IMG/VR virus record: IMGVR_UViG_3300037067_003438
Strand: one strand, 5' to 3'
Origin: an uncultured virus (IMG/VR IMGVR_UViG_3300037067_003438)
Lineage: Duplodnaviria > Heunggongvirae > Uroviricota > Caudoviricetes
DNA: 20,000 bases
The translations under genes and the position numbers were made by a program. Under the pieces are notes generated by a model. It saw nothing but the letters and a program-made list of their open reading frames with translations, did no database searches and was not told the DNA's origin. Below are positions 12-19,665 of this stretch, piece by piece (position 1 is the first letter of the stretch; the number at the start of each line of letters is the position of its first letter).

Positions 12-39
12 ATTATACATTCTTCAATAGATCGGTCAA
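12..39 (-). promoter_or_regulatory. sigma70-type promoter repeat, copy 1 (TTGACC-N16-TATAAT)
   Basis: Minus strand TTGACC gatctattgaagaatg TATAAT; same motif as 14 other copies. Confidence 0.8.
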
Positions 40-271
40 GGTGGAATTCCAGGTTCCCACTCATAATCATCATTTTTTAAATCTTTTTTCAATTGTTTTA
101 AATTAACACCTAGAGATTCTATTACCCGTTCTAAATACCATTGTTTATGAGAATCCCCATCAACCATTAATCCTTCAATAGCGTAATTTAGTGCTTTATC
201 TGGACCGTTTTTGGCATTTTGGTTAGTTCTGGTTCACCAACATTATATTTTTCTGCTAAATTTTCTCTCAT
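36..271 (-). pseudogene. Small phage protein with an apparent frameshift (MRENLAEKYNVGEPELTKMP / KNGPDKALNYAIEGLMVDGDSHKQWYLERVIESLG...WEPGIPP)
   Basis: ATG at 271 overlaps the upstream stop (ATGA), but that frame stops early. The -1 frame after the A5 run at 208-212 carries a DGxxHKQW...GIxP motif recalled from phage hypotheticals. Confidence 0.5.
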
Positions 272-444
272 AATTTTTTTGTTATTTCCTGATATAAAAT
301 GTAATATTCATCAATCCATTCTTTTGGTACCATTATATCCGCTTCTAAATATCGTAGAATTGCTTGACATAATTCGCGGAATCGTATTTCCTGCCAAATC
401 TTTTTAGGTATAATACCTATTGGTGGTTTTCTATCATTATTCAT
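268..444 (-). CDS. Hypothetical phage protein, 58 aa (MNNDRKPPIGIIPKKIWQEIRFRELCQAILRY...EWIDEY)
   Basis: Hand-translated ORF missing from the track; KPPxGxxP..W..R..AI.RY...EW pattern; stop overlaps the next ATG. Confidence 0.7.
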   Translation of the reverse strand: MNNDRKPPIGIIPKKIWQEIRFRELCQAILRYLEADIMVPKEWIDEYYILYQEITKKL

Positions 445-619
445 ATATAATACTTCTATATAACATTTCTATATAATATTTATATTTTGTGAAAATAGTT
501 AGTTGTTTCTACCCTTTTATTACTAACATTACCTGCTGAACTTATCCGGGTTTACATCTATTTATCATAGACACGTATAATAATAGACTTCAAGGGTACA
601 GGCGTGCAACCCCAAAGGG

Positions 620-1141
620 TTAAATCCTGAAGATATTCTCTAATTGTTCACTGGTTGGATCATCATAATAAATACTACGGTGTAACAGTGTTAAAGTACC
701 ATTTTTATTGATATCTAGAGATTGAACAGTACCATCTTTTAATGGAATACCAATGCGGGCAAGATGTTTATAACAATTTGTATCGACTGTTAATAGATTT
801 TTCTTGACAGGCTTAGGTAGTTTGTATGCGATAATTACATCGTTATCTGTATATGTTTGATAGCCATCTTCCTGTAATTGACTAATAAAATAGGGAAAAT
901 TAAAGTGTGTCGGAAAATCTTTTTTCACAAACTTTTTACTATCAATTAGGGTAAATGCCATACCCTTCATCTTAGTGGGAATGAATTGTCTGGGCTCACA
1001 CTTGTCTAAATCAAACATAGGCAAGCCACTGGAATTTATAAACTGTCGATCTTCTAAGACAATAGCACGTCTTGTTGCCCCGTACTCGCCTCCACCCAGA
1101 TACTCAAAACTAATCACATCATACTTTGAAAACGTTTTCAT
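620..1141 (-). CDS. WYL-like (SH3-fold) domain protein
   Basis: N-terminus ISFEY-x(7)-TRRAIV...LPMFDLDKCEPRQF resembles the WYL pattern (F.Y....R.v.....l.a.d..r...R.F); AAGGAA RBS. Confidence 0.55.
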   Translation of the reverse strand: MKTFSKYDVISFEYLGGGEYGATRRAIVLEDRQFINSSGLPMFDLDKCEPRQFIPTKMKGMAFTLIDSKKFVKKDFPTHFNFPYFISQLQEDGYQTYTDNDVIIAYKLPKPVKKNLLTVDTNCYKHLARIGIPLKDGTVQSLDINKNGTLTLLHRSIYYDDPTSEQLENIFRI

Positions 1142-1188
1142 AACAATTCCTTTCTATTACATTGTTTTACTTTATGATAATTTCAACT

Positions 1189-1428
1189 TTATTCTTCTAA
1201 TTTAATTAGTTCATCCCACTCTTGTGTATTACGATGTAATCTACAATCCCACATAGCTTTTAGGCAACGACGCAATGACTCTACTGCTGGACCCTGTTGG
1301 TTATTTAAGAATGCTAATTCACCCGCATATTTATATAGGGTGGGTGCTGCCCAATACGATATAGGAAGATAATATGCCAAACCAAGATTTGTAAACATTT
1401 CAATTTCTTTAGCGGAATATTTATCCAT
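1189..1428 (-). CDS. Hypothetical protein
   Basis: 79-aa ORF co-oriented with neighbours. Confidence 0.6.
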   Translation of the reverse strand: MDKYSAKEIEMFTNLGLAYYLPISYWAAPTLYKYAGELAFLNNQQGPAVESLRRCLKAMWDCRLHRNTQEWDELIKLEE

Positions 1429-1493
1429 TATTTCTTTTCTTTCTACGCAATGCCCGCAAAATATCTTGTAATTTCCTTAATACCGGAACGGGT

Positions 1494-1745
1494 TTATGTT
1501 TGCGTATTTTGTACTTTGGTATATCCATTACAATTATCCAACCAAACGGGATCGAATGTGATAGGAAAAATAAACCAACCCATCTTAATTCCGTGGGCGT
1601 TTCCTCGAATACCTAGTTCTGCGGGTGGATTAAATACCGCCAACCACTTATTTTTTATACTTGGGTGGGAACACTCACTATGGCAATCACCAGGAATATT
1701 TCGACGATATTGACATGTATAACAATCAAAAGTTTTAGTGGTCAT
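1494..1745 (-). CDS. Cys-rich phage hypothetical protein, possibly metal-binding
   Basis: CxxC...HxxC...GWFxFPxxFDPVWLxxC; abuts the upstream stop. Confidence 0.7.
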   Translation of the reverse strand: MTTKTFDCYTCQYRRNIPGDCHSECSHPSIKNKWLAVFNPPAELGIRGNAHGIKMGWFIFPITFDPVWLDNCNGYTKVQNTQT

Positions 1746-2084
1746 TTATTTATCCTTGAAATAGCGTTCTGCCCTAACCTTCATTTGCTGCATTAATTTT
1801 TCATAGGCATCTAGATATTCAACAGGCAGCCCAATTTCTTCACTGGTTTTAGGGCTCGTATGTCGCAGCGGGATATTATACATAGCCCTGCCTTTTGCAA
1901 CCTCGACTGCCCTACTCTTCGAGAACCTATCTTTAATATTACATTTGCTCCACCCAATCATATCTTTGTTTAGGCATACGATACACCCAACGGGATGACG
2001 AGAAATTTCATAATCCAAATTACACGTTTCTGGATAAACATCTTGAATACGCACATACCTAACCAGCATTTTTTGTTCAGCCAT
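1746..2084 (-). CDS. Phage protein with GxSxC..DxF.K...A..RA motif (N4 gp49/Sf6 gp66-like)
   Basis: IGWSKCNIKDRFSKSRAVEVAKGRA; ATG at 2084 follows an AAGGGG RBS. Confidence 0.6.
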   Translation of the reverse strand: MAEQKMLVRYVRIQDVYPETCNLDYEISRHPVGCIVCLNKDMIGWSKCNIKDRFSKSRAVEVAKGRAMYNIPLRHTSPKTSEEIGLPVEYLDAYEKLMQQMKVRAERYFKDK

Positions 2085-2149
2085 TGTCAAACCCCTTGTA
2101 ATGATGGGATTGTATTATCCCGAGTAAAATGTTAAATAACACTAAACAA

Positions 2150-2222
2150 TTGGGCAGGATGGAATCGGACCATCGACAGGCAACTTATAAGATTGCAACT
2201 CTAACCACTGAGCTACTGCCCA
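2150..2222 (-). tRNA. trnI: tRNA-Ile (anticodon UAU), CCA not encoded
   Basis: Acceptor TGGGCAG/CTGCCCA, D-arm GCTC-AGTGGTTA-GAGT, anticodon arm GCAAT-CTTATAA-GTTGC, T-arm GATGG-TCCGATT-CCATC. Confidence 0.85.
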
Positions 2223-2249
2223 TTATACATTTTCACCAACACTTGTCAA
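2222..2249 (-). promoter_or_regulatory. Promoter repeat, copy 2 (TTGACA-N16-TATAAT)
   Basis: TTGACA agtgttggtgaaaatg TATAAT. Confidence 0.8.
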
Positions 2250-2509
2250 GCATTTTCTGGGGGAATATCTTGAATTACATCCAATACATTTTTTACATAT
2301 AAAGTTTTTGATAAATGATGATCTTTCGTACCAATACCCATACTGTTAATATGTCCATAAATAGTGCTGGATAATGCACATATATTAGTATTACAATTCC
2401 CACCAACTTTTCCACAAATATATTTGAGAATACGGGTTTCTTCCACGGTGAGTTCTAGTGTAACACCAGTGATAGTTTCAACAATTTTTTTAATAGGTGT
2501 AATTTTCAT
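2246..2509 (-). CDS. Hypothetical protein, internal paralog family A
   Basis: MKI...LELTVEE..IL..ICGKVGG; similar to 2509-2790, the C-terminus of 2893-3513, and 14726-14950. Confidence 0.75.
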   Translation of the reverse strand: MKITPIKKIVETITGVTLELTVEETRILKYICGKVGGNCNTNICALSSTIYGHINSMGIGTKDHHLSKTLYVKNVLDVIQDIPPENA

Positions 2510-2790
2510 CAGATATTCCTTAATTTAACTTCTTCTGTTGGTGGCAAATCTTTAATTATATACATATCTTTGTCTATATAATCACTATAGTACAACTTCC
2601 AGTCTAATTGTCCAACACCAAGATTATCAATTTGATTATATAAATTTGTTAATAATTCCCGCATATTTGTATTTGGATTTCCATCAACACGTCTAACAAC
2701 AAATTTTAACATGCGTAATTCTTCTGGGGATAATTCAAGATTATATCCATCGACAACTTCTATAATTTTAGTATTTTTTGTAATCTTTAT
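2509..2790 (-). CDS. Family A paralog, probably starting at ATA 2790 rather than ATG 2712
   Basis: In-frame upstream extension (I/M)KITKNTKIIEVVDGYNLELSPEELR aligns without gaps to the N-terminus of 2246-2509; GGAAA SD-like sequence upstream. Confidence 0.65.
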   Translation of the reverse strand: MKITKNTKIIEVVDGYNLELSPEELRMLKFVVRRVDGNPNTNMRELLTNLYNQIDNLGVGQLDWKLYYSDYIDKDMYIIKDLPPTEEVKLRNI

Positions 2791-2802
2791 ATAATATTTC
2801 CA

Positions 2803-2886
2803 TTAATTAATATAAAATGCGTCTTTAAAGGTCAACCACAAGACAAATCCGGCTAATATCAGTATGATGAAATGTCTAAACAACAT
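2803..2886 (-). CDS. Putative 27-aa membrane peptide (MLFRHFIILILAGFVLWLTFKDAFYIN)
   Basis: Fills an intergenic gap; single hydrophobic stretch. Confidence 0.4.
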   Translation of the reverse strand: MLFRHFIILILAGFVLWLTFKDAFYIN

Positions 2887-2892
2887 TGGTTT

Positions 2893-3513: not shown

Positions 3514-3527
3514 TATAATTTCCTTTC

Positions 3528-3583
3528 AAAAAAAATAGGGCGGGCGAACCAAAGTGTTCCTTTGATAAAATATTTCCCACCCT
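3528..3583 (-). terminator. Intrinsic terminator-like structure after the HTH gene
   Basis: AGGGTGGG/CCCGCCCT stem with an inner hairpin, followed by A and T8. Confidence 0.6.
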
Positions 3584-3624
3584 GGCTGTAAAGTATGCCC
3601 CATGTGGGTGCGTGGGGTACATAC

Positions 3625-4060: not shown

Positions 4061-4088
4061 ATTATACTATCACAATCGGACTTGTCAA
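4061..4088 (-). promoter_or_regulatory. Promoter repeat, copy 3
   Basis: TTGACA agtccgattgtgatag TATAAT. Confidence 0.8.
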
Positions 4089-4444
4089 GCGGTTTCTTGG
4101 GCAATATCCTTTTTAATAGCCTTCACCATACGACGGGCACAACGTAAAGTATTTTCTAGTTCCCAATTATAATCACGAAATTCTTCACCTGGATCATAAT
4201 CATAATAATGATTAAATACAATACGATAAGCACTTCCTTCGCCACCATGGCAAAGAGGTTGTTTATAAAGTGGACATTGATGACATTTACTCGGTGTATG
4301 ATTTGGTATATAGATATGGCAATATCCACAATCCCATCCAGAAAGATCGAAGTCGCCATCATCATCATTTTTTAGATCTTTGACAATATTTTCCCACTTT
4401 TCTAAACTTTGTTTCTTTAAATTGATTTTGTCTTTCTTACGCAT
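4085..4444 (-). CDS. Cys-rich phage hypothetical protein
   Basis: KW...CGYC...CHQCPL....C; ATG 4444 after GGAG overlaps the upstream gene end. Confidence 0.7.
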   Translation of the reverse strand: MRKKDKINLKKQSLEKWENIVKDLKNDDDGDFDLSGWDCGYCHIYIPNHTPSKCHQCPLYKQPLCHGGEGSAYRIVFNHYYDYDPGEEFRDYNWELENTLRCARRMVKAIKKDIAQETA

Positions 4445-4664: not shown

Positions 4665-4703
4665 TTTACACCTTTTGGTTTGAATGTCTTGAACTATACC
4701 CTA

Positions 4704-4731
4704 ATTATACATTCTTAACTAGGTCTGTCAA
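4704..4731 (-). promoter_or_regulatory. Promoter repeat, copy 4
   Basis: TTGACA gacctagttaagaatg TATAAT. Confidence 0.85.
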
Positions 4732-4732
4732 G

Positions 4733-5059
4733 TCAAAAAGGTATTACCATACAAGAATTTTGAGAATATTTCATATAAATATCTAGCCTACTCATCCCTC
4801 CCTGTTTAGCCAACCAGCCCATTCCTACTTCAATGTGTAGAGTGGAATGATGATAAACTTTGGGCCAATGATAAGCATTGGGGTGATAGATTGGGCGACC
4901 GCCAATAGTGGTATAGTGTGAACTACTCCCTAATAACTCTGGGGGGTTGTCACCATCAACAATTTTAACAGGATAATTATATCCAGTATATCCGACATAC
5001 AGACGGGCTAAAAAATTATCCGAAATTCTATCTGGATTGTTAAAATAATTAGTGGACAT
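4733..5059 (-). CDS. Hypothetical protein
   Basis: 108-aa ORF coupled to the upstream gene (TGATG overlap). Confidence 0.7.
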   Translation of the reverse strand: MSTNYFNNPDRISDNFLARLYVGYTGYNYPVKIVDGDNPPELLGSSSHYTTIGGRPIYHPNAYHWPKVYHHSTLHIEVGMGWLAKQGGMSRLDIYMKYSQNSCMVIPF

Positions 5060-6072: not shown

Positions 6073-6105
6073 ACTAATTTTCCTTTACAAATTGATTATT
6101 ACTAA

Positions 6106-6294
6106 TTATATCCACAAACATACTTTGGTGTCAATAATGTATGTATTTGCAATAACCTCTGGTAATTCTGCATTATTACGTATAATTATACTGGTTTTTG
6201 GACCATGATAAATAATTTTTCCTTTGACCTGTTCATAAACACCAGAACTATTAAGTATTAGATAATCAACGGTATCCCCAATATTATATTTCAT
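6106..6294 (-). CDS. Small SH3/KOW-like protein
   Basis: MKYNIGDTV...GKII pattern. Confidence 0.55.
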   Translation of the reverse strand: MKYNIGDTVDYLILNSSGVYEQVKGKIIYHGPKTSIIIRNNAELPEVIANTYIIDTKVCLWI

Positions 6295-6371: not shown

Positions 6372-6557
6372 TTAACCGATTTGTTTAAGGATTTGTCTTG
6401 CCAGTAAAATTTCACCGTCGTCGCAGCCAATATAGTAAGCATCATTACAATTATCGACACAATAATCAGAGATAAAAAACTCTGGATCATCTACTGCCGC
6501 TGTTTTTCTGGCGAGGGTCTTTAAAACGTTTAAGAGGTTGTTGTTGATCATATTCAT
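6372..6557 (-). CDS. Hypothetical protein, possibly leaderless
   Basis: The track ATG at 6572 lies inside the promoter; the next ATG is 6557; D(A)Y.IG..DGEI.LAR motif. Confidence 0.6.
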   Translation of the reverse strand: MNMINNNLLNVLKTLARKTAAVDDPEFFISDYCVDNCNDAYYIGCDDGEILLARQILKQIG

Positions 6558-6563
6558 AAATGA

Positions 6564-6591
6564 ATTATACATTCTTAAAACGGTTTGTCAA
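6564..6591 (-). promoter_or_regulatory. Promoter repeat, copy 5
   Basis: TTGACA aaccgttttaagaatg TATAAT. Confidence 0.85.
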
Positions 6592-6592
6592 G

Positions 6593-6855
6593 TACGGCTT
6601 TTGGGACTTGAACCCAAGACCTACGGATTAACCTACCACTATGGCTTTCACCACCATTACCTGTTTGTGGTCTGGACTTTCTCTTTACCCACTCTGGGTA
6701 TCGCCTGTTAAGTCTCTACACCTTCCGATTACTCGGCTTGGCTCGGGATTGGCATTTTACAGCGTTTTCCGAATTTAGGCGATTCTACTTTGAAAATTTC
6801 TTTTCAAGCACTCCTATTAAAGTCCGTTGCTCTAAACCATCTGAGCTAAAGCCGC
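6593..6855 (-). tRNA. trnK: Intron-containing tRNA-Lys (UUU); exons 6820-6855 and 6593-6631
   Basis: Acceptor GCGGCTT/AAGCCGT + A73, D-arm GCTC/GAGC, spliced anticodon arm ACGGA-CTT^TTAA-TCCGT, T-arm TTGGG-TTCAAGT-CCCAA. Confidence 0.85.
6632..6819 (-). ncRNA. Group I intron (IC3-like), ~188 nt, no ORF
   Basis: P1 ACUUU/GGAGU; P2 TTGAAAA-GAAA-TTTTCAA; P3 ATCGCCT/AGGCGAT; P/Q AATTCGGAAA...AATCCCGAGC; R GTAGAGACTTAACAGG; P8 TACCCA/TGGGTA; S AAGAGAAAGTCC; terminal G. Confidence 0.9.
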
Positions 6856-7035
6856 TTAAATTTTTATTCCTTTTATTTTTAATCTATCTCTTAAAACATT
6901 ATACGCTTCTTGATATGTTCGACCTTCTGCGTTGATAACATAATTTTGGGAATTAATTTTGCCATGCCAGGTTAAATTTAGTAGAGTTTTTACAAACACG
7001 CCATTTAGGCGATATTTAACCTCACATTGATAGAT

Positions 7036-7063
7036 ATTATACATTCTAAAATAGTTATGTCAA
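7036..7063 (-). promoter_or_regulatory. Promoter repeat, copy 6 (likely drives tRNA-Lys)
   Basis: TTGACA taactattttagaatg TATAAT. Confidence 0.85.
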
Positions 7064-7359
7064 CTAAAAAACGCCAAATATTCATCATCTTCTACATAAA
7101 TACCACACCGACATAATTCCTCAATTTGTTCTGGAGTAATATCTATTTCAGCTAATTCATCAATAGTAGTATCTAAATAAATAACATCGTGTTCAGAACC
7201 AGAAATTATATTATCTTTGTTTAGCCATTCTATAAGACGGAGCATACCGTGTATTGCTTTATCCTTTGATAATTTGGGATTAACCATATCCCATTCCCCC
7301 CACGCCGTACCCTCGGAATATTGTTCAAAAGTTGCTAGAATTTGATTGTAGTCTTTCAT
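7060..7359 (-). CDS. Acidic phage hypothetical protein
   Basis: IISGSEHDVIYL...EQIEELCRCG motif; RBS present. Confidence 0.75.
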   Translation of the reverse strand: MKDYNQILATFEQYSEGTAWGEWDMVNPKLSKDKAIHGMLRLIEWLNKDNIISGSEHDVIYLDTTIDELAEIDITPEQIEELCRCGIYVEDDEYLAFFS

Positions 7360-7560: not shown

Positions 7561-7580
7561 AAGTAAATTTCCATTAAATT

Positions 7581-7657
7581 AAAAACCGATAGGGCATACT
7601 TGGGTTTCACAGCTAGCATTACCCTTAATAAGCGAGCAGTATGCTCTACTATCGGTT
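7581..7657 (-). ncRNA. Long stem-loop with structured loop and 3' U-run (terminator/attenuator or ncRNA candidate)
   Basis: AACCGATAG..AGCATACT / AGTATGCC-CTATCGGTT stem of about 17 bp, ending in T5. Confidence 0.45.
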
Positions 7658-7668
7658 ATATGTTTGTA

Positions 7669-7944: not shown

Positions 7945-8115
7945 TTATTCTTGATAAATATAGTGATTAGCAATAGTCGAACGTGTGCGTAAACGAGACA
8001 GACGATGATCTTGATGTGTCCCACTGCCCGATCTGTGTGGTTGGTGCCCACGAATTACCCTAGCGGGATTGGAGGGGACGAGGATAATGCGGATTGTTTT
8101 GCGTCTTGTTGACAT
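7945..8115 (-). CDS. Small basic Arg/His-rich protein, 56 aa
   Basis: Hand-translated MSTRRKTIRIILVPSNPARVIRGHQPHRSGSGTHQDHRLSRLRTRSTIANHYIYQE; fills a gap. Confidence 0.55.
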   Translation of the reverse strand: MSTRRKTIRIILVPSNPARVIRGHQPHRSGSGTHQDHRLSRLRTRSTIANHYIYQE

Positions 8116-8330
8116 GCTTCTATGACATTTTTAAGTGTTTTATGATAAATAATCTGTCCAGCACCGTTGGTTATGAGATTGGGAATGGTGTAATGTCTTG
8201 TTTTACCGCCTTTTGTGACGAATTTGTTAATACGATAACTCTTGTGGGCAGTATGGAAATAGCCAGTGTAGTAAAATTCTAGCGTTTTTCCAAACGGGGC
8301 AACTGTGCGTTTGTACCATGTAATGTTCAT
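8055..8330 (-). CDS. Hypothetical protein, possibly leaderless
   Basis: ATG 7 nt downstream of the -10 of promoter copy 7. Confidence 0.65.
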   Translation of the reverse strand: MNITWYKRTVAPFGKTLEFYYTGYFHTAHKSYRINKFVTKGGKTRHYTIPNLITNGAGQIIYHKTLKNVIEACQQDAKQSALSSSPPIPLG

Positions 8331-8336: not shown

Positions 8337-8364
8337 ATTATATGTTCTTAAACCTACTTGTCAA
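8337..8364 (-). promoter_or_regulatory. Promoter repeat, copy 7
   Basis: TTGACA agtaggtttaagaaca TATAAT. Confidence 0.85.
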
Positions 8365-8365: not shown

Positions 8366-8503
8366 TCAAATTATGTCGGCGTCATCCACATAAGGATAGT
8401 CAGTATAGGCATCATAATACTCATCATTATCATCTTCGTCGTCAAAATCATCATACAAATCATCATTATAATTATCAAGATTGTAGTCATAGTCACTCGA
8501 CAT
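8366..8503 (-). CDS. Hyper-acidic Asp/Tyr-rich peptide, 45 aa
   Basis: MSSDYDYNLDNYNDDLYDDFDDEDDNDEYYDAYTDYPYVDDADII with AGGAG RBS. Confidence 0.7.
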   Translation of the reverse strand: MSSDYDYNLDNYNDDLYDDFDDEDDNDEYYDAYTDYPYVDDADII

Positions 8504-8527: not shown

Positions 8528-8818
8528 CTAACATTTCTTTGTTAATTCGTGCAATGGAAATTTTACACCTAAATCTTTTTCCAATTCGGGGGCTTTCCAT
8601 CCGACCCATCTTATTACAGCAAAAACTTCCCTGCCCCGATTTTCAAATTTTGTTATAACCCCATAGGATTGCTTGGACGATGCCCATTCTGACCTTACAT
8701 ACACCCTATCATTTATTTTGAAATTATTGTTTATTTTTTTTATAATTTTTATTGGAGTGGAAATATTATCCCATTGATTTAATATATCTTCTAGGACAAT
8801 TCCGATGTTTTTTCCCAT
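8528..8818 (-). CDS. SH3/KOW-like small protein
   Basis: FKINDRVYV...GVI...AVIRW...L.EL; ATG 8818 after AAGGTG. Confidence 0.6.
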   Translation of the reverse strand: MGKNIGIVLEDILNQWDNISTPIKIIKKINNNFKINDRVYVRSEWASSKQSYGVITKFENRGREVFAVIRWVGWKAPELEKDLGVKFPLHELTKKC

Positions 8819-9927: not shown

Positions 9928-10082
9928 ATTACACGGTTGACTTCTACCTTTTGGACATAACCTTTTTCCATTGCTTTTAAGGATAGGTTATAGCTATATC
10001 CCTGGTCTATACAAAACGCCATACAAAATAATCCAGCAAGAACACAAACCAGGATTACAAAATTCCGCCAATCGTCATCCAT
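9891..10082 (-). CDS. Small membrane protein
   Basis: N-terminal hydrophobic helix, then AMEKGYVQ...W motif. Confidence 0.7.
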   Translation of the reverse strand: MDDDWRNFVILVCVLAGLFCMAFCIDQGYSYNLSLKAMEKGYVQKVEVNRVIWVKPQTKVEQE

Positions 10083-10084
10083 TG

Positions 10085-10807
10085 TTATTTTCCTGTTAAA
10101 AAGAGTTGATTTGAATTAGCACTATGAATTGGTTTATTTAGCGGAACATTATTTCCTGCCTGATAACCAGCCTGATAAGCATTATTATTTATTTTGGTCG
10201 TCGTTGTAGCCTGACGATGTTTAATTCCTAAATTTAGTAGAGCGAATTCCTTATCCCGTTTTTGATTTTTCAGTACAACTAGAGAGGTACAACCGCTAAC
10301 ATACTGATTTTTGCGTAGTTTCAGCATTTCCTCAAGACGGCGGGCAAGACGAATAACCATTCCCTTTTGAAATGACGTACTGACAGTTTTACTACAAGAA
10401 TTAAATGCCCGATATTGTTCAGTCTTAAACTTTACGGTTTCATTTTCAATAGCCTGATAAATTAATTGATATAAATGTTTAGCCATCATTACATCGGTGG
10501 GCATACCAAAGAAATAATAGGACAACCCATCTTTGCCATACCTATCCTGCCAAATTTTACAATCACAAAAATCGGCAATAGCCACACAACAAAAACGAAT
10601 GGGGTGCCCATTACGTCGCCCAGTTTTCACGGTATCAGACACACAACTTGTTTGTTCGACAAAAATTTTATCCAGGGTAAGGTTGTAGGCTTTCAGTAAA
10701 TTGTCCACTTTGGCGGCGGCTGACAATGCCTCTGCCTCTGTACAACCCCTATCAGTTGTTTTGTTAGACAATTCTCGAATGATTTTAACGATGGTTTCGC
10801 GGTCCAT
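10085..10807 (-). CDS. DUF2786 domain-containing protein
   Basis: KIIRELSNK...GCTEAEALSAAAKVDNLLKAYNL N-terminus; FFG...D, SFQKG...RL and AYQAGYQAG motifs; the track start lies in the promoter, and ATG 10807 follows AGGA. Confidence 0.8.
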   Translation of the reverse strand: MDRETIVKIIRELSNKTTDRGCTEAEALSAAAKVDNLLKAYNLTLDKIFVEQTSCVSDTVKTGRRNGHPIRFCCVAIADFCDCKIWQDRYGKDGLSYYFFGMPTDVMMAKHLYQLIYQAIENETVKFKTEQYRAFNSCSKTVSTSFQKGMVIRLARRLEEMLKLRKNQYVSGCTSLVVLKNQKRDKEFALLNLGIKHRQATTTTKINNNAYQAGYQAGNNVPLNKPIHSANSNQLFLTGK

Positions 10808-10850
10808 TTGTGTGTCCTGCGGTAGATGGATTGAATTGTTCACTACCACC

Positions 10851-10878
10851 ATTATACATTCTTAAACGCATCTGTCAA
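10851..10878 (-). promoter_or_regulatory. Promoter repeat, copy 8
   Basis: TTGACA gatgcgtttaagaatg TATAAT. Confidence 0.85.
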
Positions 10879-10879
10879 T

Positions 10880-11134
10880 TTATTTTGGTTCCGTTTCATA
10901 CCCAAAACACTTTTTTGTTAATTCTACAATAATTTGTGGGTATGGTTTTTCTATTCTACTGCCATATTGGTGATAAACCATTCTATGATAGATAGTACAT
11001 ACCACTAATTGGTAGCCACTTTCGGCTTCTACATAATCCCCAATCTTGGGGCAGGTGACAAAATCGGTGGGCCATGTCTCCCTACGCCCATCGTCGATAT
11101 TGGTATGACAACAATATCTTTGTTGATTAAACAT
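10880..11134 (-). CDS. Phage hypothetical protein
   Basis: C.TN.D....WP..F...P.IGD...L.V...H...VEL pattern. Confidence 0.7.
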   Translation of the reverse strand: MFNQQRYCCHTNIDDGRRETWPTDFVTCPKIGDYVEAESGYQLVVCTIYHRMVYHQYGSRIEKPYPQIIVELTKKCFGYETEPK

Positions 11135-11537
11135 GCTTATATTTTTCCTGTAATTGAGCTAGTTCTGTTTGTTTTTGGGCTATTTGGTGGGCAAGATTTT
11201 CTTTTAATGCTAGAACATTTTTTTGGACAACTATTGTCACCATATCAGATACAAACTGGTAAAGGTGTGACATTGTGCTAGAACATCCTGCGTCATAATG
11301 TGTTGTTTGTTCCCATAATTTAGAACACATCAAGGCATATTCTGGATCATAATTATCATTATTATAATCGGGGTTTTTCTTAATAGTGGGGTATTGATAA
11401 ATTTCTTGAACTAATCTATCAGATGGATGAGACATTAACCAGACAAGAAACTTGAGTTTATTTGACTCAATATCTATCCAAAAGGTATTATTAGTTTTCA
11501 CTAATTTTTCATAATCAATACAGGATGAGGTAGACAT
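11127..11537 (-). CDS. Hypothetical protein with C-terminal coiled coil
   Basis: 136-aa ORF coupled to its neighbours. Confidence 0.7.
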   Translation of the reverse strand: MSTSSCIDYEKLVKTNNTFWIDIESNKLKFLVWLMSHPSDRLVQEIYQYPTIKKNPDYNNDNYDPEYALMCSKLWEQTTHYDAGCSSTMSHLYQFVSDMVTIVVQKNVLALKENLAHQIAQKQTELAQLQEKYKHV

Positions 11538-11731: not shown

Positions 11732-11747
11732 GGCAAACCTCTTTCTT

Positions 11748-11870
11748 AAAAAGAAACCCCTCGCTGGTCCATCCTAAAATCAGATATTTAACACGATTAT
11801 TTCTGATTTATTATCGGGCTATCCATTTTTCTGTCATTTGGAAGCGGTCATTGCTGTACCGCAGAGGGGC
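11748..11870 (-). ncRNA. Multi-stem structured RNA candidate
   Basis: Closing stem GCCCCTC/GAGGGGT encloses three hairpins and is followed by TTCTTTTT. Confidence 0.45.
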
Positions 11871-11880
11871 GTAGATAAAC

Positions 11881-12121: not shown

Positions 12122-12149
12122 ATTATATGTTCTTAAACCGGTTTGTCAA
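12122..12149 (-). promoter_or_regulatory. Promoter repeat, copy 9
   Basis: TTGACA aaccggtttaagaaca TATAAT. Confidence 0.85.
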
Positions 12150-12167: not shown

Positions 12168-12872
12168 TCATTCGGTTGCCATCAACATTTTGTGCGTTAG
12201 ACGATCAATTGCCTTTTCATATAATTGTCTAACATTTTCTTTAGTACACCCTAATTTATTTCCAATACTTTCTAGGGTTTCGCCATTTAGACGACTTTTT
12301 ACGATATCTTGTGTGCGTTGCGGTAATTGGTCAATAAATTTGTGGAGTAAAATATGTTCTTCATTTTGTACTATCTTATGTAGAATATCATCATTATATG
12401 TTATTTCGTTTTGTCTATTTATTAAACTATGAGATTTCTTAGCATTTTTAACTTCTTTAATATGTTTGTATGGATTTTCCTTCGTGTGTTTACTGGCAAG
12501 CCATGCCGCGACTTTGGGAATATGAATAATAGAAAGATTTGTGTCTAAATAGTGAAGAATATGTTTACGAATATAAATTGTTGCCCACGTACTCAACATA
12601 CCTTGTGCCGGATCGTAACTATCAACAGCCTCAATAATACCCACCAAACCCACTTCGGTTAAAGTTTCTATATCTATTTGCCCATTATCCCTAAATTTTT
12701 TAGCAAAAGTGTTTGCAATATTGATATTTAATGGAATAACAGAAAAAATTAGGTTCTCTCTAGCGGTTTGATCGCCCTGTTGAGCCCGCTCTTTTAATAA
12801 TGTTAATTCTGCGTGGGTGTAGACATGACATTTTCCTGATATTGTTTTTTTGAAAATATCCATACAATCCAT
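12168..12872 (-). CDS. Phage-encoded RNA polymerase sigma-70 family sigma factor
   Basis: AQQGDQTARENLI (r1.2/2.1); GLVGIIEAVDSYDP...LSTWATIYIR...IIHIP (r2); LPQRTQDIV...GETLESIGNKLGCTKENVRQLYEKAIDRL (r4 HTH). Confidence 0.92.
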   Translation of the reverse strand: MDCMDIFKKTISGKCHVYTHAELTLLKERAQQGDQTARENLIFSVIPLNINIANTFAKKFRDNGQIDIETLTEVGLVGIIEAVDSYDPAQGMLSTWATIYIRKHILHYLDTNLSIIHIPKVAAWLASKHTKENPYKHIKEVKNAKKSHSLINRQNEITYNDDILHKIVQNEEHILLHKFIDQLPQRTQDIVKSRLNGETLESIGNKLGCTKENVRQLYEKAIDRLTHKMLMATE

Positions 12873-13750: not shown

Positions 13751-13779
13751 ATTATACATTCTATAGGTTGGTTTGTCAA
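13751..13779 (-). promoter_or_regulatory. Promoter repeat, copy 10 (the only one with a 17-bp spacer)
   Basis: TTGACA aaccaacctatagaatg TATAAT. Confidence 0.85.
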
Positions 13780-13794: not shown

Positions 13795-14019
13795 TCAGGG
13801 CGAATTAAACTTTCTGGAATAATCCCTAAAATCAATAGAGGAAATTTTACTAAAGGGAAACCCACCAATGGGGGTTTTTGAGCTTAAACCCTTACTATCC
13901 TTCATTTCAAATCTAAATGCCCCACTAATCATTCTATCGTCCATACTTTCAATCTTGACATAATATGTGGACCCCCACTTGATTTTGACAACACGTCCGA
14001 CCATCGAATAATTGTCCAT
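13795..14019 (-). CDS. Small Sm/SH3-like hypothetical protein
   Basis: MVGRVVKI...FPFSKISSI; GGGAG RBS. Confidence 0.6.
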   Translation of the reverse strand: MDNYSMVGRVVKIKWGSTYYVKIESMDDRMISGAFRFEMKDSKGLSSKTPIGGFPFSKISSIDFRDYSRKFNSP

Positions 14020-14473: not shown

Positions 14474-14501
14474 ATTATACATTCTCCAGGCGATTTGTCA
14501 A
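14474..14501 (-). promoter_or_regulatory. Promoter repeat, copy 11
   Basis: TTGACA aatcgcctggagaatg TATAAT. Confidence 0.85.
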
Positions 14502-14512: not shown

Positions 14513-14707
14513 CTAGGTATTTCGCTCTATGACATCAGAGATATCTACCCAAAATTCTCCCTCTACCAAATCCACCACATTAACCTGAACCCTGGAAACA
14601 TGCTTATGATTCCACGTATCAGTAATAATTCCTGGAATTTGAATTCTTGCGGTTGGATTACTGGGTGGCGACATAATAACGAAAACTTTTTGTAAAGGAG
14701 TGAACAT
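14513..14707 (-). CDS. Small SH3-like protein
   Basis: F...QKVFV...GII...V....FWV..SDV; RBS. Confidence 0.6.
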   Translation of the reverse strand: MFTPLQKVFVIMSPPSNPTARIQIPGIITDTWNHKHVSRVQVNVVDLVEGEFWVDISDVIERNT

Positions 14708-14725
14708 AATTTTTCCTTTAATTAT

Positions 14726-14950
14726 TTATCCCTTTACGATAATGCCATTTGGAATAATCTCAGTGGCGTGTGGACTCTTAACCATATCGTCAATCTGGCA
14801 ATATAATTGATAGAAAAATTTCTGCATTGGCGTTGTCGCCCCAACAGTACGCCCCATCAACATGCCTAGCCATTCCATTTCCTGTTCAGTCAGGGAAATT
14901 TGATAGTCATACTCTACAGGGCGGGTAATTTCTTTCTTAATAATTTCCAT
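14726..14950 (-). CDS. Hypothetical protein, paralog family A
   Basis: MEI.KK.....DY.ISLTEQE...L..LMGR.VG...LY.QI. Confidence 0.7.
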   Translation of the reverse strand: MEIIKKEITRPVEYDYQISLTEQEMEWLGMLMGRTVGATTPMQKFFYQLYCQIDDMVKSPHATEIIPNGIIVKG

Positions 14951-14960
14951 TATTTTTTCC

Positions 14961-15416
14961 TTAATTAGAACTGATAGTACATTTACCTAAATTTTCTTTA
15001 GATAAAATATTTCCGTTATTATCTACTCTAACCTCGCCAGAAGCCCAAGAACAATTTTCAATATTATACTGAATATTCAACCATCCGTCTGGATTATGCT
15101 CGTCTGCCAATTCGGGGGTGTGTACCTGAATATCACCCGTATTATCATCAATAGAACCATCATAATTCAGGTTAGTGCATGGTACAAACTGATGATTCAA
15201 CATAAATTTAAGAATTTTGACAGCATCTTTTTTATCTTTAGCGGGAATACAAAATGGTGGAATTGGAAATTGTGGGGTAAAACATACCCGAAATTTTGTG
15301 GTAATTTGATTTTCTGGTATGTCATCTATAACGACCTTGGATAGTACTGACCATTCCAACCCCCTAACGACATCACTTTGTTCTTCGTCGGTATCCCATC
15401 CATATTTTGTAGACAT
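14961..15416 (-). CDS. Hypothetical protein
   Basis: 151-aa ORF, AAGGA RBS; RV...PQ.P..PF.IP motif. Confidence 0.7.
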   Translation of the reverse strand: MSTKYGWDTDEEQSDVVRGLEWSVLSKVVIDDIPENQITTKFRVCFTPQFPIPPFCIPAKDKKDAVKILKFMLNHQFVPCTNLNYDGSIDDNTGDIQVHTPELADEHNPDGWLNIQYNIENCSWASGEVRVDNNGNILSKENLGKCTISSN

Positions 15417-15561
15417 AATTCCAATCCTTCGTTAATCGAGAGTTAATCCCCACGGGAAATATTCCACTAACTAATTTTAATCGTTTGTTCTGATCTACGC
15501 TCGCAGGCTAGTAAGCTAAGGCTAATGGGATTTTTGACAAATATTTTCCCTAATATTTTCC

Positions 15562-15786: not shown

Positions 15787-15830
15787 AGAATTGACATAAA
15801 AGGTTATGTGGTAAGAGTTTCGTTATTGTC

Positions 15831-16085: not shown

Positions 16086-16166
16086 GGGAAATTATCCTAA
16101 ATAAATTGAGGTAAACCTATACATGGAAAAGGGTTAGTTGAATCACTGATTTAATCACTATATTCA

Positions 16167-16194
16167 ATTATACATTCTTAGAATGGTTTGTCAA
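16167..16194 (-). promoter_or_regulatory. Promoter repeat, copy 12
   Basis: TTGACA aaccattctaagaatg TATAAT. Confidence 0.85.
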
Positions 16195-16398
16195 GTGGTT
16201 TTTTTGATAGTTGATCTTCGCCAGACGCCACATATACTTAGGTACTTCACCCTTGGCGGCGTGAATTTTAAGGGATAGGACAATAAATTTAGCCATATTT
16301 CCGGGTAAATTTAGCCCTTCGTCAATAATTCTTTGTTGTTCTTCACACAAATTCATAAAACGAAATTTAGCATATTGTTTAAGAGTAATACCAGACAT
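16168..16398 (-). CDS. Hypothetical protein; 3' end runs through promoter copy 12
   Basis: ATG 16398 preferred to TTG 16434; start uncertain. Confidence 0.5.
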   Translation of the reverse strand: MSGITLKQYAKFRFMNLCEEQQRIIDEGLNLPGNMAKFIVLSLKIHAAKGEVPKYMWRLAKINYQKNHLTNHSKNV

Positions 16399-16565
16399 AA
16401 GAGAATATACTGTAGGATGGAGATTGACTGTCAAGAAATATATACATGTATGATTGGAGTATACAGTGTATGAAATAACTATACACCTGTCTTGTCCACA
16501 TATCGGGGTGACTATATCAATATGATATCACTTTGCTATCACAATCTGTAGTCAATTTGACGACA

Positions 16566-16859
16566 CTATCCAATTAACCCCCATTTTCTAGCTGTTTTCG
16601 CTAGTTCTAGCCCTTGTTCATGGGTCATATCTTGTGTCCATTCACATGCTTGAGCGAATCTAAAATCAGAAATGGCGGCTTTTTCTCTATCTAGGGTGGC
16701 GTAGATCTCCTCCCCTCGTTCGTCTAATTCTAACGTTCCTTTATCTATTCCAACAATATTGGCTAATTCATCTAACCCCCCCGCCACAATAATCATGGAA
16801 ATACCGATTGCCTCCATCTCGGGGGTAAAATTCATATCCTGAAAATATGGGTGGGTCAT
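16566..16859 (-). CDS. Hypothetical protein
   Basis: 97-aa ORF with GAGGT RBS. Confidence 0.75.
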   Translation of the reverse strand: MTHPYFQDMNFTPEMEAIGISMIIVAGGLDELANIVGIDKGTLELDERGEEIYATLDREKAAISDFRFAQACEWTQDMTHEQGLELAKTARKWGLIG

Positions 16860-16880
16860 AAAATTACCTCATTTTTATCC

Positions 16881-17053
16881 TGTTTGTATCGTTTTGCGTG
16901 CTATCGCGTTGATAGAGGTGCCGCTATACAATTTTTGGGTCTGAAAAAATGCTTGACTTGTTGCTTTTATAACTCGACATATACCAAAAAAACCTGAGGA
17001 AAATACAAACTTTTTTGTTGGATTTTTTATGGTATGTTTGTATCGTTTTGCGT
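16881..17053. repeat. Exact 19-bp direct repeat TGTTTGTATCGTTTTGCGT (16881-16899 and 17035-17053)
   Basis: Read directly; flanks an AT-rich non-coding segment. Confidence 0.85.
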
Positions 17054-17313
17054 TATTGGATCGTAAGTGTGTCGTTTTTTTCCAATAATTCTACCATAAA
17101 TCTATCAGATGGCTCTAGGGTGACCGCATTACTCCACCACTCCTCACGTCCACAATCGACTAGCAACAACAAATTGGGTGTAGCCTTTAATACTACATAT
17201 CCAATATAGATCGGGCTTAGTCCCCATTTTATCACTCGACATAATTTGTTGAGTGGCATATCCTTGACTGTAAATTGTTGTGGTTCTGAATTTTTTTTGG
17301 TTAATTTTAGCAT
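17053..17313 (-). CDS. Hypothetical protein, paralog family B
   Basis: MLKLT...DMPLNKLCRVI.W...YIG...WW...VE.L; AGGAG RBS. Confidence 0.8.
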   Translation of the reverse strand: MLKLTKKNSEPQQFTVKDMPLNKLCRVIKWGLSPIYIGYVVLKATPNLLLLVDCGREEWWSNAVTLEPSDRFMVELLEKNDTLTIQ

Positions 17314-17482
17314 AATCTTCTCCTAAATTTTATCCTATTTTTTTGTGAATTTTGCCCTGTTTTGGCGTTAGTCTACTCACTTTCGCCATACAAACCCATA
17401 CAAATTCCTAAAACTATACATACCAGAATAAGTAGCTCCATGGGGGTAGTCCTTAAATAATTGTGAACATAATTTGTGTAGA

Positions 17483-17737
17483 CTACGCCAGCACGGTCAA
17501 TACATCCCCTGGGTTTAATTGTTCGACCACAAAAGTACCACTCATCAAATCAACATCCATCCACCAATAACCCTTTCCGGCGTCTATGTGGATAATGGTA
17601 TTTTGGTGAGTTTTAATGATAATATTTCCGATGTACATACTATGGCTCCATTGGATAATGCGGCACAACTTATTGACCGGCATTGTCTTGAGGTCAAAAA
17701 GGATGGGCTCAGGCTTGGTTGTGGTTAGTTTCAACAT
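17483..17737 (-). CDS. Hypothetical protein, paralog family B
   Basis: MLKLT...MPVNKLCRIIQW...YIG...WW...VEQL; AAGGAAA RBS. Confidence 0.8.
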   Translation of the reverse strand: MLKLTTTKPEPILFDLKTMPVNKLCRIIQWSHSMYIGNIIIKTHQNTIIHIDAGKGYWWMDVDLMSGTFVVEQLNPGDVLTVLA

Positions 17738-17823
17738 ACTAATTTCCTTTACAAAAGTGGATTTTTAACGATTGACTACCAAAATGGGTGGTTTTCTTGT
17801 AATCCGGGGTTGATGACGATTAT

Positions 17824-18033
17824 CTATTCTTTTGACAATAATACAGGTGTTGATATATAGCCTGCAATTTCTGTGGTATGTACTTCCACATAGGTATTAT
17901 CGGCAAACGTCAGTCCGACAAAATTACAGGCTGTTTTAATGTCCACCCCAATAATGGTCTTGCCTTTAAGATTATGCCAATTGAGGTAGCCGGATGATTT
18001 TAGGAAGCGGGGGTCGAATTTGGGACGTGCCAT
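17824..18033 (-). CDS. Hypothetical protein
   Basis: LKGKTI.GV....N.V.L.F.D pattern; AGGAG RBS. Confidence 0.7.
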   Translation of the reverse strand: MARPKFDPRFLKSSGYLNWHNLKGKTIIGVDIKTACNFVGLTFADNTYVEVHTTEIAGYISTPVLLSKE

Positions 18034-18044
18034 TAAACTCTCCT

Positions 18045-18072
18045 ATTATACTTTTTACAGTGGAATTGTCAA
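18045..18072 (-). promoter_or_regulatory. Promoter repeat, copy 13
   Basis: TTGACA attccactgtaaaaag TATAAT. Confidence 0.8.
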
Positions 18073-18073
18073 G

Positions 18074-18271
18074 TTAAAATATCCAAGATTCGACAACTAC
18101 GGGTCCATACATACCATTTTTCATCAAGGCGATATAGTTTGGTTTATCCCCAAGATAGGTGGTCATCAATTCGAGGATATATTCTTTCACTTGACTATTT
18201 GTGCCAAATGACCCATTATATCCAGAATAACTACAAAATCCAATCGCGGTAAATTGTCCAAAATCATCCAT
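18074..18271 (-). CDS. Hypothetical protein
   Basis: 65-aa ORF with GGGGA RBS. Confidence 0.6.
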   Translation of the reverse strand: MDDFGQFTAIGFCSYSGYNGSFGTNSQVKEYILELMTTYLGDKPNYIALMKNGMYGPVVVESWIF

Positions 18272-18296
18272 GGCATATCCCCAAAAATAGATTGAG

Positions 18297-18322
18297 AAAA
18301 AAATCCCCCTTTTTGAAGGGAA
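18297..18322 (-). terminator. Intrinsic terminator after the DUF932 gene
   Basis: TTCCCTT-CAAA-AAGGGGG followed by A and T7. Confidence 0.6.
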
Positions 18323-18346
18323 GGGGTGAAACCCGAAAGAGGTGGA

Positions 18347-19303
18347 TTAACTGGCCATACGGATGGCTTCCGTAAACGCACGTTGATTTATATTGGCACC
18401 CGCCCCGAACCAGAGGGAGTCAAGACGGTTTGACTGGGTTCGCCCCTGTCGATAGGAAAGATATTCGGTAATACCGTTATAAGCACCCCACCACGTACCA
18501 CGGGCGTTGTCTTGCCCAATACCATTAACGGCTAGGTTGATGATGTCCGCCAACTTAGTGCGGGATTGTGGACTATCCTTCTCTTCAGTCATGCCCATAA
18601 CTACCTTGACGTAGGCGATCAGGTCTTTCCCGTTGACACCCTTGTTCGCCAACATACGGTATTGTTCTGCGGTAGCAAGGAATTCTTGGCGAGCCAAATC
18701 CATAACTTCGTGAATAGTAGAAAGATTGCTTTCCACCTTACTGGAATGACGTACTCTCACCAACTTTGAAGAGGCAGAGTCATGGGCCATAGAGAGGGTA
18801 TTCTGGCAAACCACCCGAATGGGGGTAAAGCCAGCTCTGACTGCCCCAATGCCGTGAACATTGGACAAGAGGATATACGACTCAACAGGGTCAGAACCCT
18901 TGACGATATCCACGGGGTCGATGGATGTCTTAGCCAGACACCACACCTTCTCCCCATGCCCCAAACTACCGCACGTCTCGATAGCACACATCTTGCTGTC
19001 TAGCCACGGTTGGAACCAGCTAAAAATCTTGTTGTTTTGTAGAGGGGTCCAATGGGGCCCAACGACATTGAGAATAGCATTATTATCCAGACGATAAACC
19101 GCCCTTTCTCGGATGGGAATACCGTCCACTGTTTGGAGTGCCTTCAAACCAACTTCAAAATCCAAACCCGCAACAGTAGAACATGCTGCCACATTATACT
19201 TCTCGGATTCGTCAATCCTGCTCCCCAAGCCATGCCAGGGGGTCTTTGTTCCAGCGTAAGCCATGTTAGCCTTACCATTTGTCATGTCGATATTCGCGGC
19301 CAT
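18347..19303 (-). CDS. DUF932 domain protein (phage/plasmid-like protein, TIGR03299 family)
   Basis: TPWHGLG, AGLDFEV, VG..W.PLQN, ETCGSL..G.KVW.LA, TPIRVVCQNTL, RHS, GTWWGAYNGITEY and SLWFG motifs; ATG 19303 after AGGAG. Confidence 0.9.
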   Translation of the reverse strand: MAANIDMTNGKANMAYAGTKTPWHGLGSRIDESEKYNVAACSTVAGLDFEVGLKALQTVDGIPIRERAVYRLDNNAILNVVGPHWTPLQNNKIFSWFQPWLDSKMCAIETCGSLGHGEKVWCLAKTSIDPVDIVKGSDPVESYILLSNVHGIGAVRAGFTPIRVVCQNTLSMAHDSASSKLVRVRHSSKVESNLSTIHEVMDLARQEFLATAEQYRMLANKGVNGKDLIAYVKVVMGMTEEKDSPQSRTKLADIINLAVNGIGQDNARGTWWGAYNGITEYLSYRQGRTQSNRLDSLWFGAGANINQRAFTEAIRMAS

Positions 19304-19359
19304 TGTAACTACTCCTGGGGGGTATCCCCTGTAAAGGTGTTTCACTCTCAACTAAATCT

Positions 19360-19387
19360 ATTCTACATTCTTAAACCGATTTGTCAA
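19360..19387 (-). promoter_or_regulatory. Promoter repeat, copy 14
   Basis: TTGACA aatcggtttaagaatg TAGAAT. Confidence 0.8.
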
Positions 19388-19402
19388 CTAAAAATCCGAA
19401 AA

Positions 19403-19636
19403 CTATCTGGTTGTGTGTAGATTGACCATTTCCTCTACACTGCCCACACTGTTAATGGTAATGGTATAATTTTCCCCTCGGAATTCCACCCCGCCGTCTT
19501 TCCATAGGGTAATCATAGCCAGGGTCATGCCCTCGACTTGCCAATAAAATGTTGCCACATCATCATTATTGTTGGCGTTGGCGATTAGGTTCATTTCTGC
19601 TCCAAGGTTAGTGGTTTGTTTCATTCTCACTGCCAC
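19403..19636 (-). CDS. Hypothetical protein (start uncertain: GTG 19636, GTG 19630 or ATG 19624)
   Basis: ORF directly downstream of promoter copy 15. Confidence 0.6.
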   Translation of the reverse strand: MAVRMKQTTNLGAEMNLIANANNNDDVATFYWQVEGMTLAMITLWKDGGVEFRGENYTITINSVGSVEEMVNLHTTR

Positions 19637-19637
19637 A

Positions 19638-19665
19638 ATTCTACTTTCTTAAAATGGTTTGTCAA
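19638..19665 (-). promoter_or_regulatory. Promoter repeat, copy 15
   Basis: TTGACA aaccattttaagaaag TAGAAT. Confidence 0.8.

Follow-up and report, generated by a model that had tools for sequence, protein, structure and literature searches.

The DNA analysed here is a stretch of 20,000 nucleotides (nt), referred to below as the window, from an uncultured virus of the Caudoviricetes (IMG/VR record IMGVR_UViG_3300037067_003438), and the feature of concern is a promoter-like repeat whose copies are met, often without a gap, by the ends of the genes lying upstream of them. The window comes from what is taken to be the early part, rich in ORFans, of the genome of an uncultured, AT-rich tailed phage (35% GC). 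The base composition of the window is 34-37% GC, climbing to 45% across the last 2 kb, and its genes lie without exception on the minus strand. A greedy call of open reading frames (ORFs) on that strand (ATG start, at least 30 amino acids (aa), non-overlapping) gave 56 ORFs covering 83% of the window, the true coding density being higher since short ORFs were skipped by the 30-aa, non-overlap call. The encoded proteins were scanned against Pfam and PHROGs, with 49 of the 56 ORFs covered.

The pattern TTGAC-N15-19-TATAAT occurs 14 times in these 20 kb against 0.26 expected, always on the minus (coding) strand, and none of 200 shuffled sequences reached 14 matches. Two further copies (19360-19387 and 19638-19665) are gained when TAGAAT is tolerated as the -10 box. 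Fifteen copies share their spacer and form a repeat of 28-29 nt with the motif C-TTGACA-AACCnnTTTAAGAATG-TATAAT, while the sixteenth consensus promoter (6105-6134) has an 18-nt spacer whose sequence is unrelated to that of the others. As for the boxes, the exact form TTGACA-N16/17-TATAAT is found in 13 copies, one copy has TTGACC and two have TAGAAT as -10; the hexamer score is 12/12 in thirteen copies. Upstream of the -35 box, a C occupies position -1 in 11 of the 15 copies, and A or T occupies positions -4 to -8 in 10-14 of the 15. Spacer subfamilies are seen (for instance AAACC vs. AAGT after TTGAC), and TTGAC is doubled in tandem at copies 4704 and 8337, copies being named here after their lower coordinate. 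The repeats split the ORFan region into units of 0.3-2.5 kb with 1-6 small genes each. The copies and their upstream junctions are the following:

12-39, minus strand: promoter copy TTGACC-N16-TATAAT, whose TGA at 36-38 terminates ORF 36-167
2222-2249, minus strand: promoter copy; ORF 2246-2509 ends with the TGA of the -35, and a tRNA-Ile gene overlaps the -10
4061-4088, minus strand: promoter copy; ORF 4085-4444 ends with the TGA of the -35; the 70-nt leader of this copy contains a G5/C5 hairpin
4704-4731, minus strand: promoter copy; ORF 4733-5059 stops 1 nt before TTGAC (TGA-C-TTGAC)
6105-6134, minus strand: consensus promoter with the unrelated 18-nt spacer, wholly within the 3' end of ORF 6106-6294, which terminates at the TAA of TATAAT
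6564-6591, minus strand: promoter copy; the -35 adjoins the 3' end (6592/6593) of an intron-bearing tRNA gene
7036-7063, minus strand: promoter copy; ORF 7060-7359 ends with the TGA of the -35
8337-8364, minus strand: promoter copy; ORF 8366-8503 stops 1 nt before TTGAC
10851-10878, minus strand: promoter copy; ORF 10880-11134 stops 1 nt before TTGAC (TAA-A-TTGAC)
12122-12149, minus strand: promoter copy; the stop of the sigma-factor gene 12168-12872 lies 18 nt upstream
13751-13779, minus strand: promoter copy with a 17-nt spacer; the stop of ORF 13795-14019 lies 15 nt upstream
14474-14501, minus strand: promoter copy; ORF 14513-14707 stops 11 nt upstream
16167-16194, minus strand: promoter copy; ORF 16168-16398 runs through it and stops at the TAA of TATAAT
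18045-18072, minus strand: promoter copy; ORF 18074-18271 stops 1 nt before TTGAC (TAA-C-TTGAC)
19360-19387, minus strand: promoter copy with -10 TAGAAT; the stop of ORF 19403-19624 lies 15 nt upstream, and another TAG in the same frame directly adjoins the -35
19638-19665, minus strand: promoter copy with -10 TAGAAT; ORF 19662-19976 ends with the TGA of the -35

A preliminary description of the window had counted ten seamless junctions among the 15 copies, and this count is borne out. The TGA inside TTGAC is itself the upstream stop in five copies (36, 2246, 4085, 7060 and 19662, all five correctly placed), four stops lie 1 nt before the -35 (4733, 8366, 10880 and 18074), and a tRNA gene ends in the same way (6592/6593), which gives nine flush ORF junctions out of 14 plus one tRNA end. 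The other five are not seamless and comprise gaps of 11 nt (stop at 14513), 15 nt (13795), 15 nt (19403) and 18 nt (12168), as well as one read-through (ORF 16168-16398). As a whole, 13 of the 14 upstream ORF stops fall between -4 and +18 nt relative to the -35, and coding sequence stays outside the core from -35 to -10 in 13 of the 14 cases.

The three frames in which the 14 upstream ORFs reach the promoter are about evenly used (6, 4 and 4 ORFs). Where the TGA of TTGAC is in phase, five of the six ORFs extend to that TGA; this class is in part automatic, as no ORF arriving in that frame can continue past the triplet. The stop 1 nt before the -35 is present in 4/4 copies having an ORF in the corresponding frame and in 0/11 of the others; since the stop triplet before C-TTGAC is absent from these 11 copies, it belongs to the ORFs and not to the promoter. 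Concerning the third frame, a flush stop would there displace the C conserved at -1; the stops of three ORFs lie 15-18 nt upstream, immediately ahead of the A/T tract, and one ORF reads through. The possibility that the promoter works as a three-frame stop was rejected, as all three frames are closed in just 7 of the 15 copies.

Edge-to-edge packing is also met away from the promoters: the gap is at most 2 nt at 13 of the 42 non-promoter gene junctions, and the stop of ORF 6856-7044 touches the 5' end of the tRNA gene whose 3' end touches a -35. The same script was run on two comparators, namely RB49, the phage that defines the promoter-early stem-loops (PeSLs), and G001, a 121-kb IMG/VR contig that is the sole relative found. 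Of the 26 exact promoters of RB49, 2 use the TGA and none is flush; the preceding ORF ends 3-30 nt away in 8 cases and more than 30 nt away in 10, the long gaps holding stem-loops and terminators, and it runs into the promoter in 6. G001 has eight promoters, of which one uses the TGA, four follow gaps of 5, 7, 12 and 18 nt, and three are read into. Flush junctions number 9/14 in the window vs. 2/26 in RB49 (Fisher p = 0.0003) and 1/8 in G001 (p = 0.03), while junctions within 18 nt of the -35 or overlapping the promoter number 14/14, with 8/8 in G001 and 14/26 in RB49 (p = 0.003). The observation is confirmed and is quantitatively unusual. The preliminary description had proposed, on the strength of these distances, that each promoter and the genes behind it form a cassette shuffled at the repeat. 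The distances are indeed tighter than in both comparators; their tightness is no argument for shuffling, since flush stops would not follow from recombination between the promoter repeats alone.

PeSLs are presented by Arbiol et al. (2010; PMC2839356) and Comeau et al. (2014; PMC4122927) as elements of the T4-type phages RB49/phi1, T4/PST and KVP40/nt-1 with four features: a promoter of sigma-70 type, a tract of A/T, a stem-loop, and sequence conserved over about 100 bp. According to the same papers, this conserved sequence recombines, flanked ORFans being deleted or inserted and mini-circles formed. Repeated near-consensus sigma-70 promoters with an A/T-rich tract upstream of the -35 are common to both systems, as are their place ahead of ORFans in a variable region with an upstream stop nearby and the occurrence of some strain-to-strain gene indels next to promoters. 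On the other hand, the best 40-nt hairpin within -45 to +63 of each copy in the window showed no enrichment (mean dG -7.15 kcal/mol, z -0.01; 2/14 at or below -10, one of them a tRNA arm), whereas RB49, used as a positive control, gave a mean dG of -12.67 with z -2.3 and 17/26 at or below -10; the values for G001 were -6.99 and 0.26. Terminator-like sites in the window number 10 vs. 14.0 expected, and none adjoins a promoter copy. The conserved stretch is moreover about 30-38 nt here and about 100 bp in PeSLs, flush stops are commoner than in RB49 by the counts given above, and no T4-type core genes are visible within the window. The likeness to PeSLs that had been suggested extends to the promoter consensus, the A/T tract and the ORFan setting, and breaks off at the stem-loop, which defines these elements and is absent here.

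Two gaps inside units (7561-7668 and 11732-11880, minus strand) do contain long hairpins (-23.9 and -33.9 kcal/mol) that end in T-runs; these may be internal attenuators or small RNAs, uncoupled from the promoters.

DNA self-similarity around the promoters is limited to 30-38 nt at 83-94% identity. For the 14 copies with a 16-nt spacer, similarity between spacers followed neither that of the upstream flanks (Mantel r = 0.10; 950 of 5000 permutations as high) nor that of the distal flanks (r = 0.03; 2082 of 5000), and the idea that promoters spread together with their flanks was dropped on the basis of this negative test. Paralogs had been described as dispersed families fitting a cassette model. 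The three families (33-44% aa identity) in fact consist of neighbours, two of the three lying entirely within one unit, and to judge from this arrangement the paralogs are local tandem gene duplications and not copies of a promoter plus its gene. An exact 18-nt direct repeat (17035-17052 and 16881-16898, minus strand) was also noted in the non-coding gap 16860-17052 (193 nt), at its upstream end and near its downstream end, between two paralogous small genes.

Population evidence was drawn from the Logan contigs of four runs aligned to the window, these contigs being short and some of them 80-95% identical to it. Joints with at least 30 letters on the shorter side and lying outside the tRNA intron and the DUF932 gene were considered usable, and five were kept: one at a promoter edge (16196->16566, considered below), one between adjacent promoter leaders and three away from promoters. 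Of the latter, 1257->1515 is a replacement without a nearby promoter and 17461->17701 removes most of one paralog, again without a promoter, while 14712->15423 (side 128), on a contig of run X3 with about 90% identity, removes two genes precisely (ORFs 14726-14950 and 14961-15416), both breakpoints falling between ribosome-binding site and ATG with no promoter copy involved. Joint 19316->19614, found in runs X1 and X2, removes the ORF between two adjacent copies and ends 24-44 nt downstream of their -10 boxes. Two of the segments removed are the following:

14713-15422, minus strand: polymorphic two-gene segment of 710 bp, missing in a run X3 contig
16197-16565, minus strand: polymorphic segment of 369 bp, missing in one run X1 contig

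As about one quarter of the gene junctions carry a promoter, promoter-edge joints are no more numerous than expected. On the earlier proposal, indel breakpoints should coincide with the repeat; one end of the 369-bp unit lies at a promoter edge, and three of the five joints have no promoter at either end. The preliminary description had also suggested looking for circles or deletions that join two copies of the repeat. No circle junction was seen in the contigs of the four runs, which cannot reveal rare circles, and the only joint going backwards, 19670->19389, was rejected as a circle joint, for its 33 letters are essentially one promoter and fit cross-alignment of similar copies.

Several other joints were set aside. 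Joint 20000->16167 most simply reflects another promoter copy just past the window end; 2804->8638, 3326->8726, 6479->9959, 12860->15654 and 13595->13716 have a side <30 and are unreliable; 8738->14706 and 1443->2801 touch the low-complexity A/T sequence 8716-8753; 6640->6711 lies in the intron/tRNA region common to many other organisms; and 18712->18786 is internal to the DUF932 gene. The depth of the run X1 contigs is about 12-15 to the left and about 25 to the right of 16196/16570, and contigs break at 16196 and at 16570: the sequences of several X1 strains agree on the DUF932 side and differ from the stop of ORF 16566-16859 onward.

We consider that the repeats are probably ordinary strong early promoters in a terminator-free, deletion-trimmed ORFan region. 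Fifteen near-perfect sigma-70 promoters would each head a short unit transcribed by the host RNA polymerase right after infection; a phage sigma factor gene, being inside one of these units, must itself be expressed from such a promoter. With no terminator or stem-loop between units, the space that separates the final codon of a unit from the following promoter has no function to fill, and may have been trimmed to zero by deletion bias and the economy of packaging. The reading frame would then decide where the stop falls, i.e. at the built-in TGA (5 ORFs), at a last codon sparing the C at -1 (4) or before the A/T tract (3), flush stops being the end state of a trimming in which coding sequence is tolerated up to the promoter core and not inside it. 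Genes would be gained and lost at gene boundaries generally, promoter junctions among them, with no dedicated machinery for excision or insertion. Both the early timing and trimming as the cause of the flush stops are what we infer from this organisation. Virulent phages such as T4 and T5 have arrays of strong host-type early promoters, and the window resembles them in its many co-directional consensus promoters, its small unknown early genes and its conserved bases beyond the hexamers; to our knowledge, the exact abutment of stops or tRNA ends has not been quantified for T4 or T5 early promoters. If the repeats are such early promoters, the window offers a clean example of early-ORFan organisation in an uncultured phage, helpful for promoter-aware annotation and for guessing a canonical sigma-70 host.

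Several points weigh against early promoters and trimming as the whole explanation. That the repeats are sigma-70 consensus promoters is itself a prediction from their sequence. Within the window, promoter junctions are tight in 14/14 cases vs. 22/42 for promoter-free ones (p = 0.0009; tight meaning at most 18 nt to the -35, or at most 31 nt from stop to ATG to allow for a ribosome-binding site), a contrast softened by the presence of RNA hairpins or small unannotated ORFs in several of the long gaps. Overall, the compaction of the window is short of the maximum, given that ORFs cover 83% of it and gaps of at least 100 nt occur at 12 of the 42 non-promoter junctions; plain compaction does not fully predict the exact 1-nt class (4/4 in frame), and the promoter junctions are tighter than those of both RB49 and G001. 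Upstream of copies 2222 and 4061, 17 of 25 nt are identical; this similarity takes in the final codons of two ORFs that are otherwise unrelated and stands at the 99th percentile of a max-of-105 null. Lastly, joint 16196->16566 (X1; depth 5.1, side 30) lacks 369 bp that begin at the stop of ORF 16566-16859 and reach to within 2 nt of the -35 of copy 16167; the lost DNA includes the larger part of ORF 16168-16398 and a degenerate promoter-like copy (TTGACT, 16550-16555). Provided that flush junctions are the ancestral state, a viable insertion had to land in that 2-nt gap, which would explain the precise ends. These last observations could instead point to a PeSL-like system without hairpins, in which promoter copies would be preferred substrates of general (phage or host) homologous recombination, an alternative we find rather unlikely. 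Units of promoter plus genes would then be deleted, duplicated and exchanged between co-infecting relatives, and the flush stops would be old cassette joints. The setting is suitable, with a sigma-70 consensus, an A/T tract upstream and ORFans downstream (46/49 with no Pfam and 41/49 with no PHROG match). The 369-bp joint takes out a degenerate promoter copy with one ORF, joint 19316->19614 recurs in two runs from different studies and removes an ORF between adjacent copies with similar leaders, the X1 depth step lies at 16196/16570 where strains diverge, and copies 2222 and 4061 have some 20 nt of upstream coding sequence in common. However, the repeat measures 28-38 nt at 83-94% identity against about 100 bp in PeSLs, and the defining stem-loop is missing. 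A true crossover between copy 16167 and the degenerate copy would have kept the 10 nt upstream of the latter and would show shared letters; the 369-bp joint lies off the predicted crossover site and has 0 shared letters. Three of the five indels are promoter-free, the Mantel tests gave no signal, paralogs are tandem within units, and repeat recombination leaves the flush stops unexplained. It is doubtful that the flush joints are scars of a hairpin-less PeSL relative outside the T4 group, with exchange at the ~29-nt promoter. Equally tentative is the corollary that the promoter supplies or abuts the stop so that an incoming gene is terminated and the next unit expressed, the 369-bp unit being a live example. 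Should the repeats nevertheless act as exchange points, PeSL-type shuffling would extend beyond the T4 hallmarks and the stem-loop, the promoter alone being sufficient.

The promoter could also be the mobile part, a short unit copied repeatedly directly behind stop codons and making new transcription units. To this we give little credence, even though the spacer is conserved far past the needs of sigma-70 recognition and forms subfamilies, TTGAC stands in tandem at 4704 and 8337, and each of the 14 ORFs ends no more than 18 nt from the -35 or inside the promoter. No terminal repeats, consistent target duplication or transposase (49 scanned proteins) accompany the copies, conserved spacers are also expected from one optimal promoter or a shared regulator site, and random insertion would often leave residual spacer upstream, of which none is seen. 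Hardly credible, finally, is a dedicated site-specific system of integron type with the repeat as its recombination site, as the preliminary description had envisaged. In integron cassette arrays, some cassette ORFs end in attC and the cassettes are promoterless. The window recalls such arrays in that small genes follow one another in tandem with a repeated element between them, inside or at the edge of which the upstream stop may lie, and in having one known polymorphic unit; it differs from them in that each unit has its own promoter, no intI or other integrase or recombinase is found among the 49 scanned proteins, no hairpin-forming inverted repeat of attC type is present, and breakpoints do not fall at one fixed crossover point of the repeat. 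Excision or insertion at the promoter repeats, whether integron-like or PeSL-like, is thus weakly supported at best, and ordinary early promoters in a trimmed region remain the reading we retain.

Downstream of the -10, an ATG is found exactly 6 nt away at copy 8337 (ORF 8055-8330) and at copy 6564 (an internal ATG of ORF 6372-6572), and these two copies may give leaderless mRNAs. At copy 18045, an AGGAG ribosome-binding site follows the -10 immediately. Copy 19360 is predicted to drive the DUF932 gene 18347-19303. Furthermore, positions 62-86 and 4357-4381 are 92% identical over 25 nt and encode a common KDLKNDD motif; they belong to ORFs 36-167 and 4085-4444, which are each the last gene before a promoter copy supplying its TGA stop.

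Besides the promoters, the window holds the following features:

2150-2222, minus strand: tRNA-Ile(TAT), overlapping the last T of the -10 of copy 2222 by 1 nt
6592-6855, minus strand: intron-split tRNA, called Asn(GTT) with a 188-nt intron by ARAGORN
10085-10852, minus strand: DUF7168/DUF2786 gene (Pfam match)
12168-12872, minus strand: sigma-70 family gene (Pfam match)
18305-18322, minus strand: intrinsic terminator, the sole convincing result of the terminator scan, after the DUF932 gene and with no adjoining promoter copy
18347-19303, minus strand: DUF932 gene (Pfam match)

As tRNA-Ile begins on the last T of the -10, a transcript from copy 2222 would start inside the tRNA, and an intact tRNA would come only from read-through from upstream. 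The other tRNA gene carries a group I intron in its anticodon loop (Rfam RF00028, 6657-6829, 55.5 bits). It had been described as a tRNA-Lys ending at 6593; the 3' end stands, and as to the identity, ARAGORN with intron detection calls Asn(GTT). Lys(UUU) would require the splice site to move by 1 nt and agrees equally well with the U/G splice rules, so that Asn and Lys are both candidates. Summed contig depth peaks in the intron bin 6671-7337 in all four runs (31 in X2 vs. about 2-6 elsewhere), and this peak, together with many loose ends at 6711/6750, indicates that the intron core is common to many other genomes in the samples. On group I introns in phage tRNA genes, the literature search gave nothing directly relevant among the matches listed.

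Concerning gene content, Pfam matches were obtained for 3 of the 49 scanned proteins (46 without) and PHROG matches for 8 (41 without), all of the latter being of unknown function except the sigma factor; no integrase, recombinase or homing enzyme was found among these proteins. A megablast of the whole window against INPHARED (50,697 phage records) gave no near match, and a search of 5.8 billion proteins returned no homologue of ORF 4085-4444 besides itself. Scans of IMG/VR for the promoter pattern gave 0 matches and then 71 single-copy matches on 71 contigs, consistent with chance; the same scan of genome contigs gave 2 matches, both unrelated, and IMG/VR locus searches seeded with the DUF932, sigma and DUF7168 proteins found no relative. 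LR756511 was rejected as a relative: its DUF932 protein is 44.5% identical, with 50% GC and nothing else in common with the window. The nearest full-length DUF932 relative, on G001, has 56% identity, and the DUF932 protein itself was found on two contigs, the longer being 78,574 bp. DNA of the window is present in the groundwater run X1, which is probably its source, and in the landfill run X2 (a different study; 65% of sampled words). After a metagenome scan (at least 119 loci) followed by BLAST, only one locus was related among the matches listed, namely 628 bases of a 1570-bp contig (L116), identical to positions 10551-11178.

The sigma-70 family protein (12168-12872, minus strand) has 234 aa with regions 2 and 4 and is encoded inside a consensus-promoter unit. 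The 'non-coding' gaps 2713-2892, 9928-10084 and 17314-17482 (minus strand) contain short hydrophobic ORFs of about 23-63 aa.

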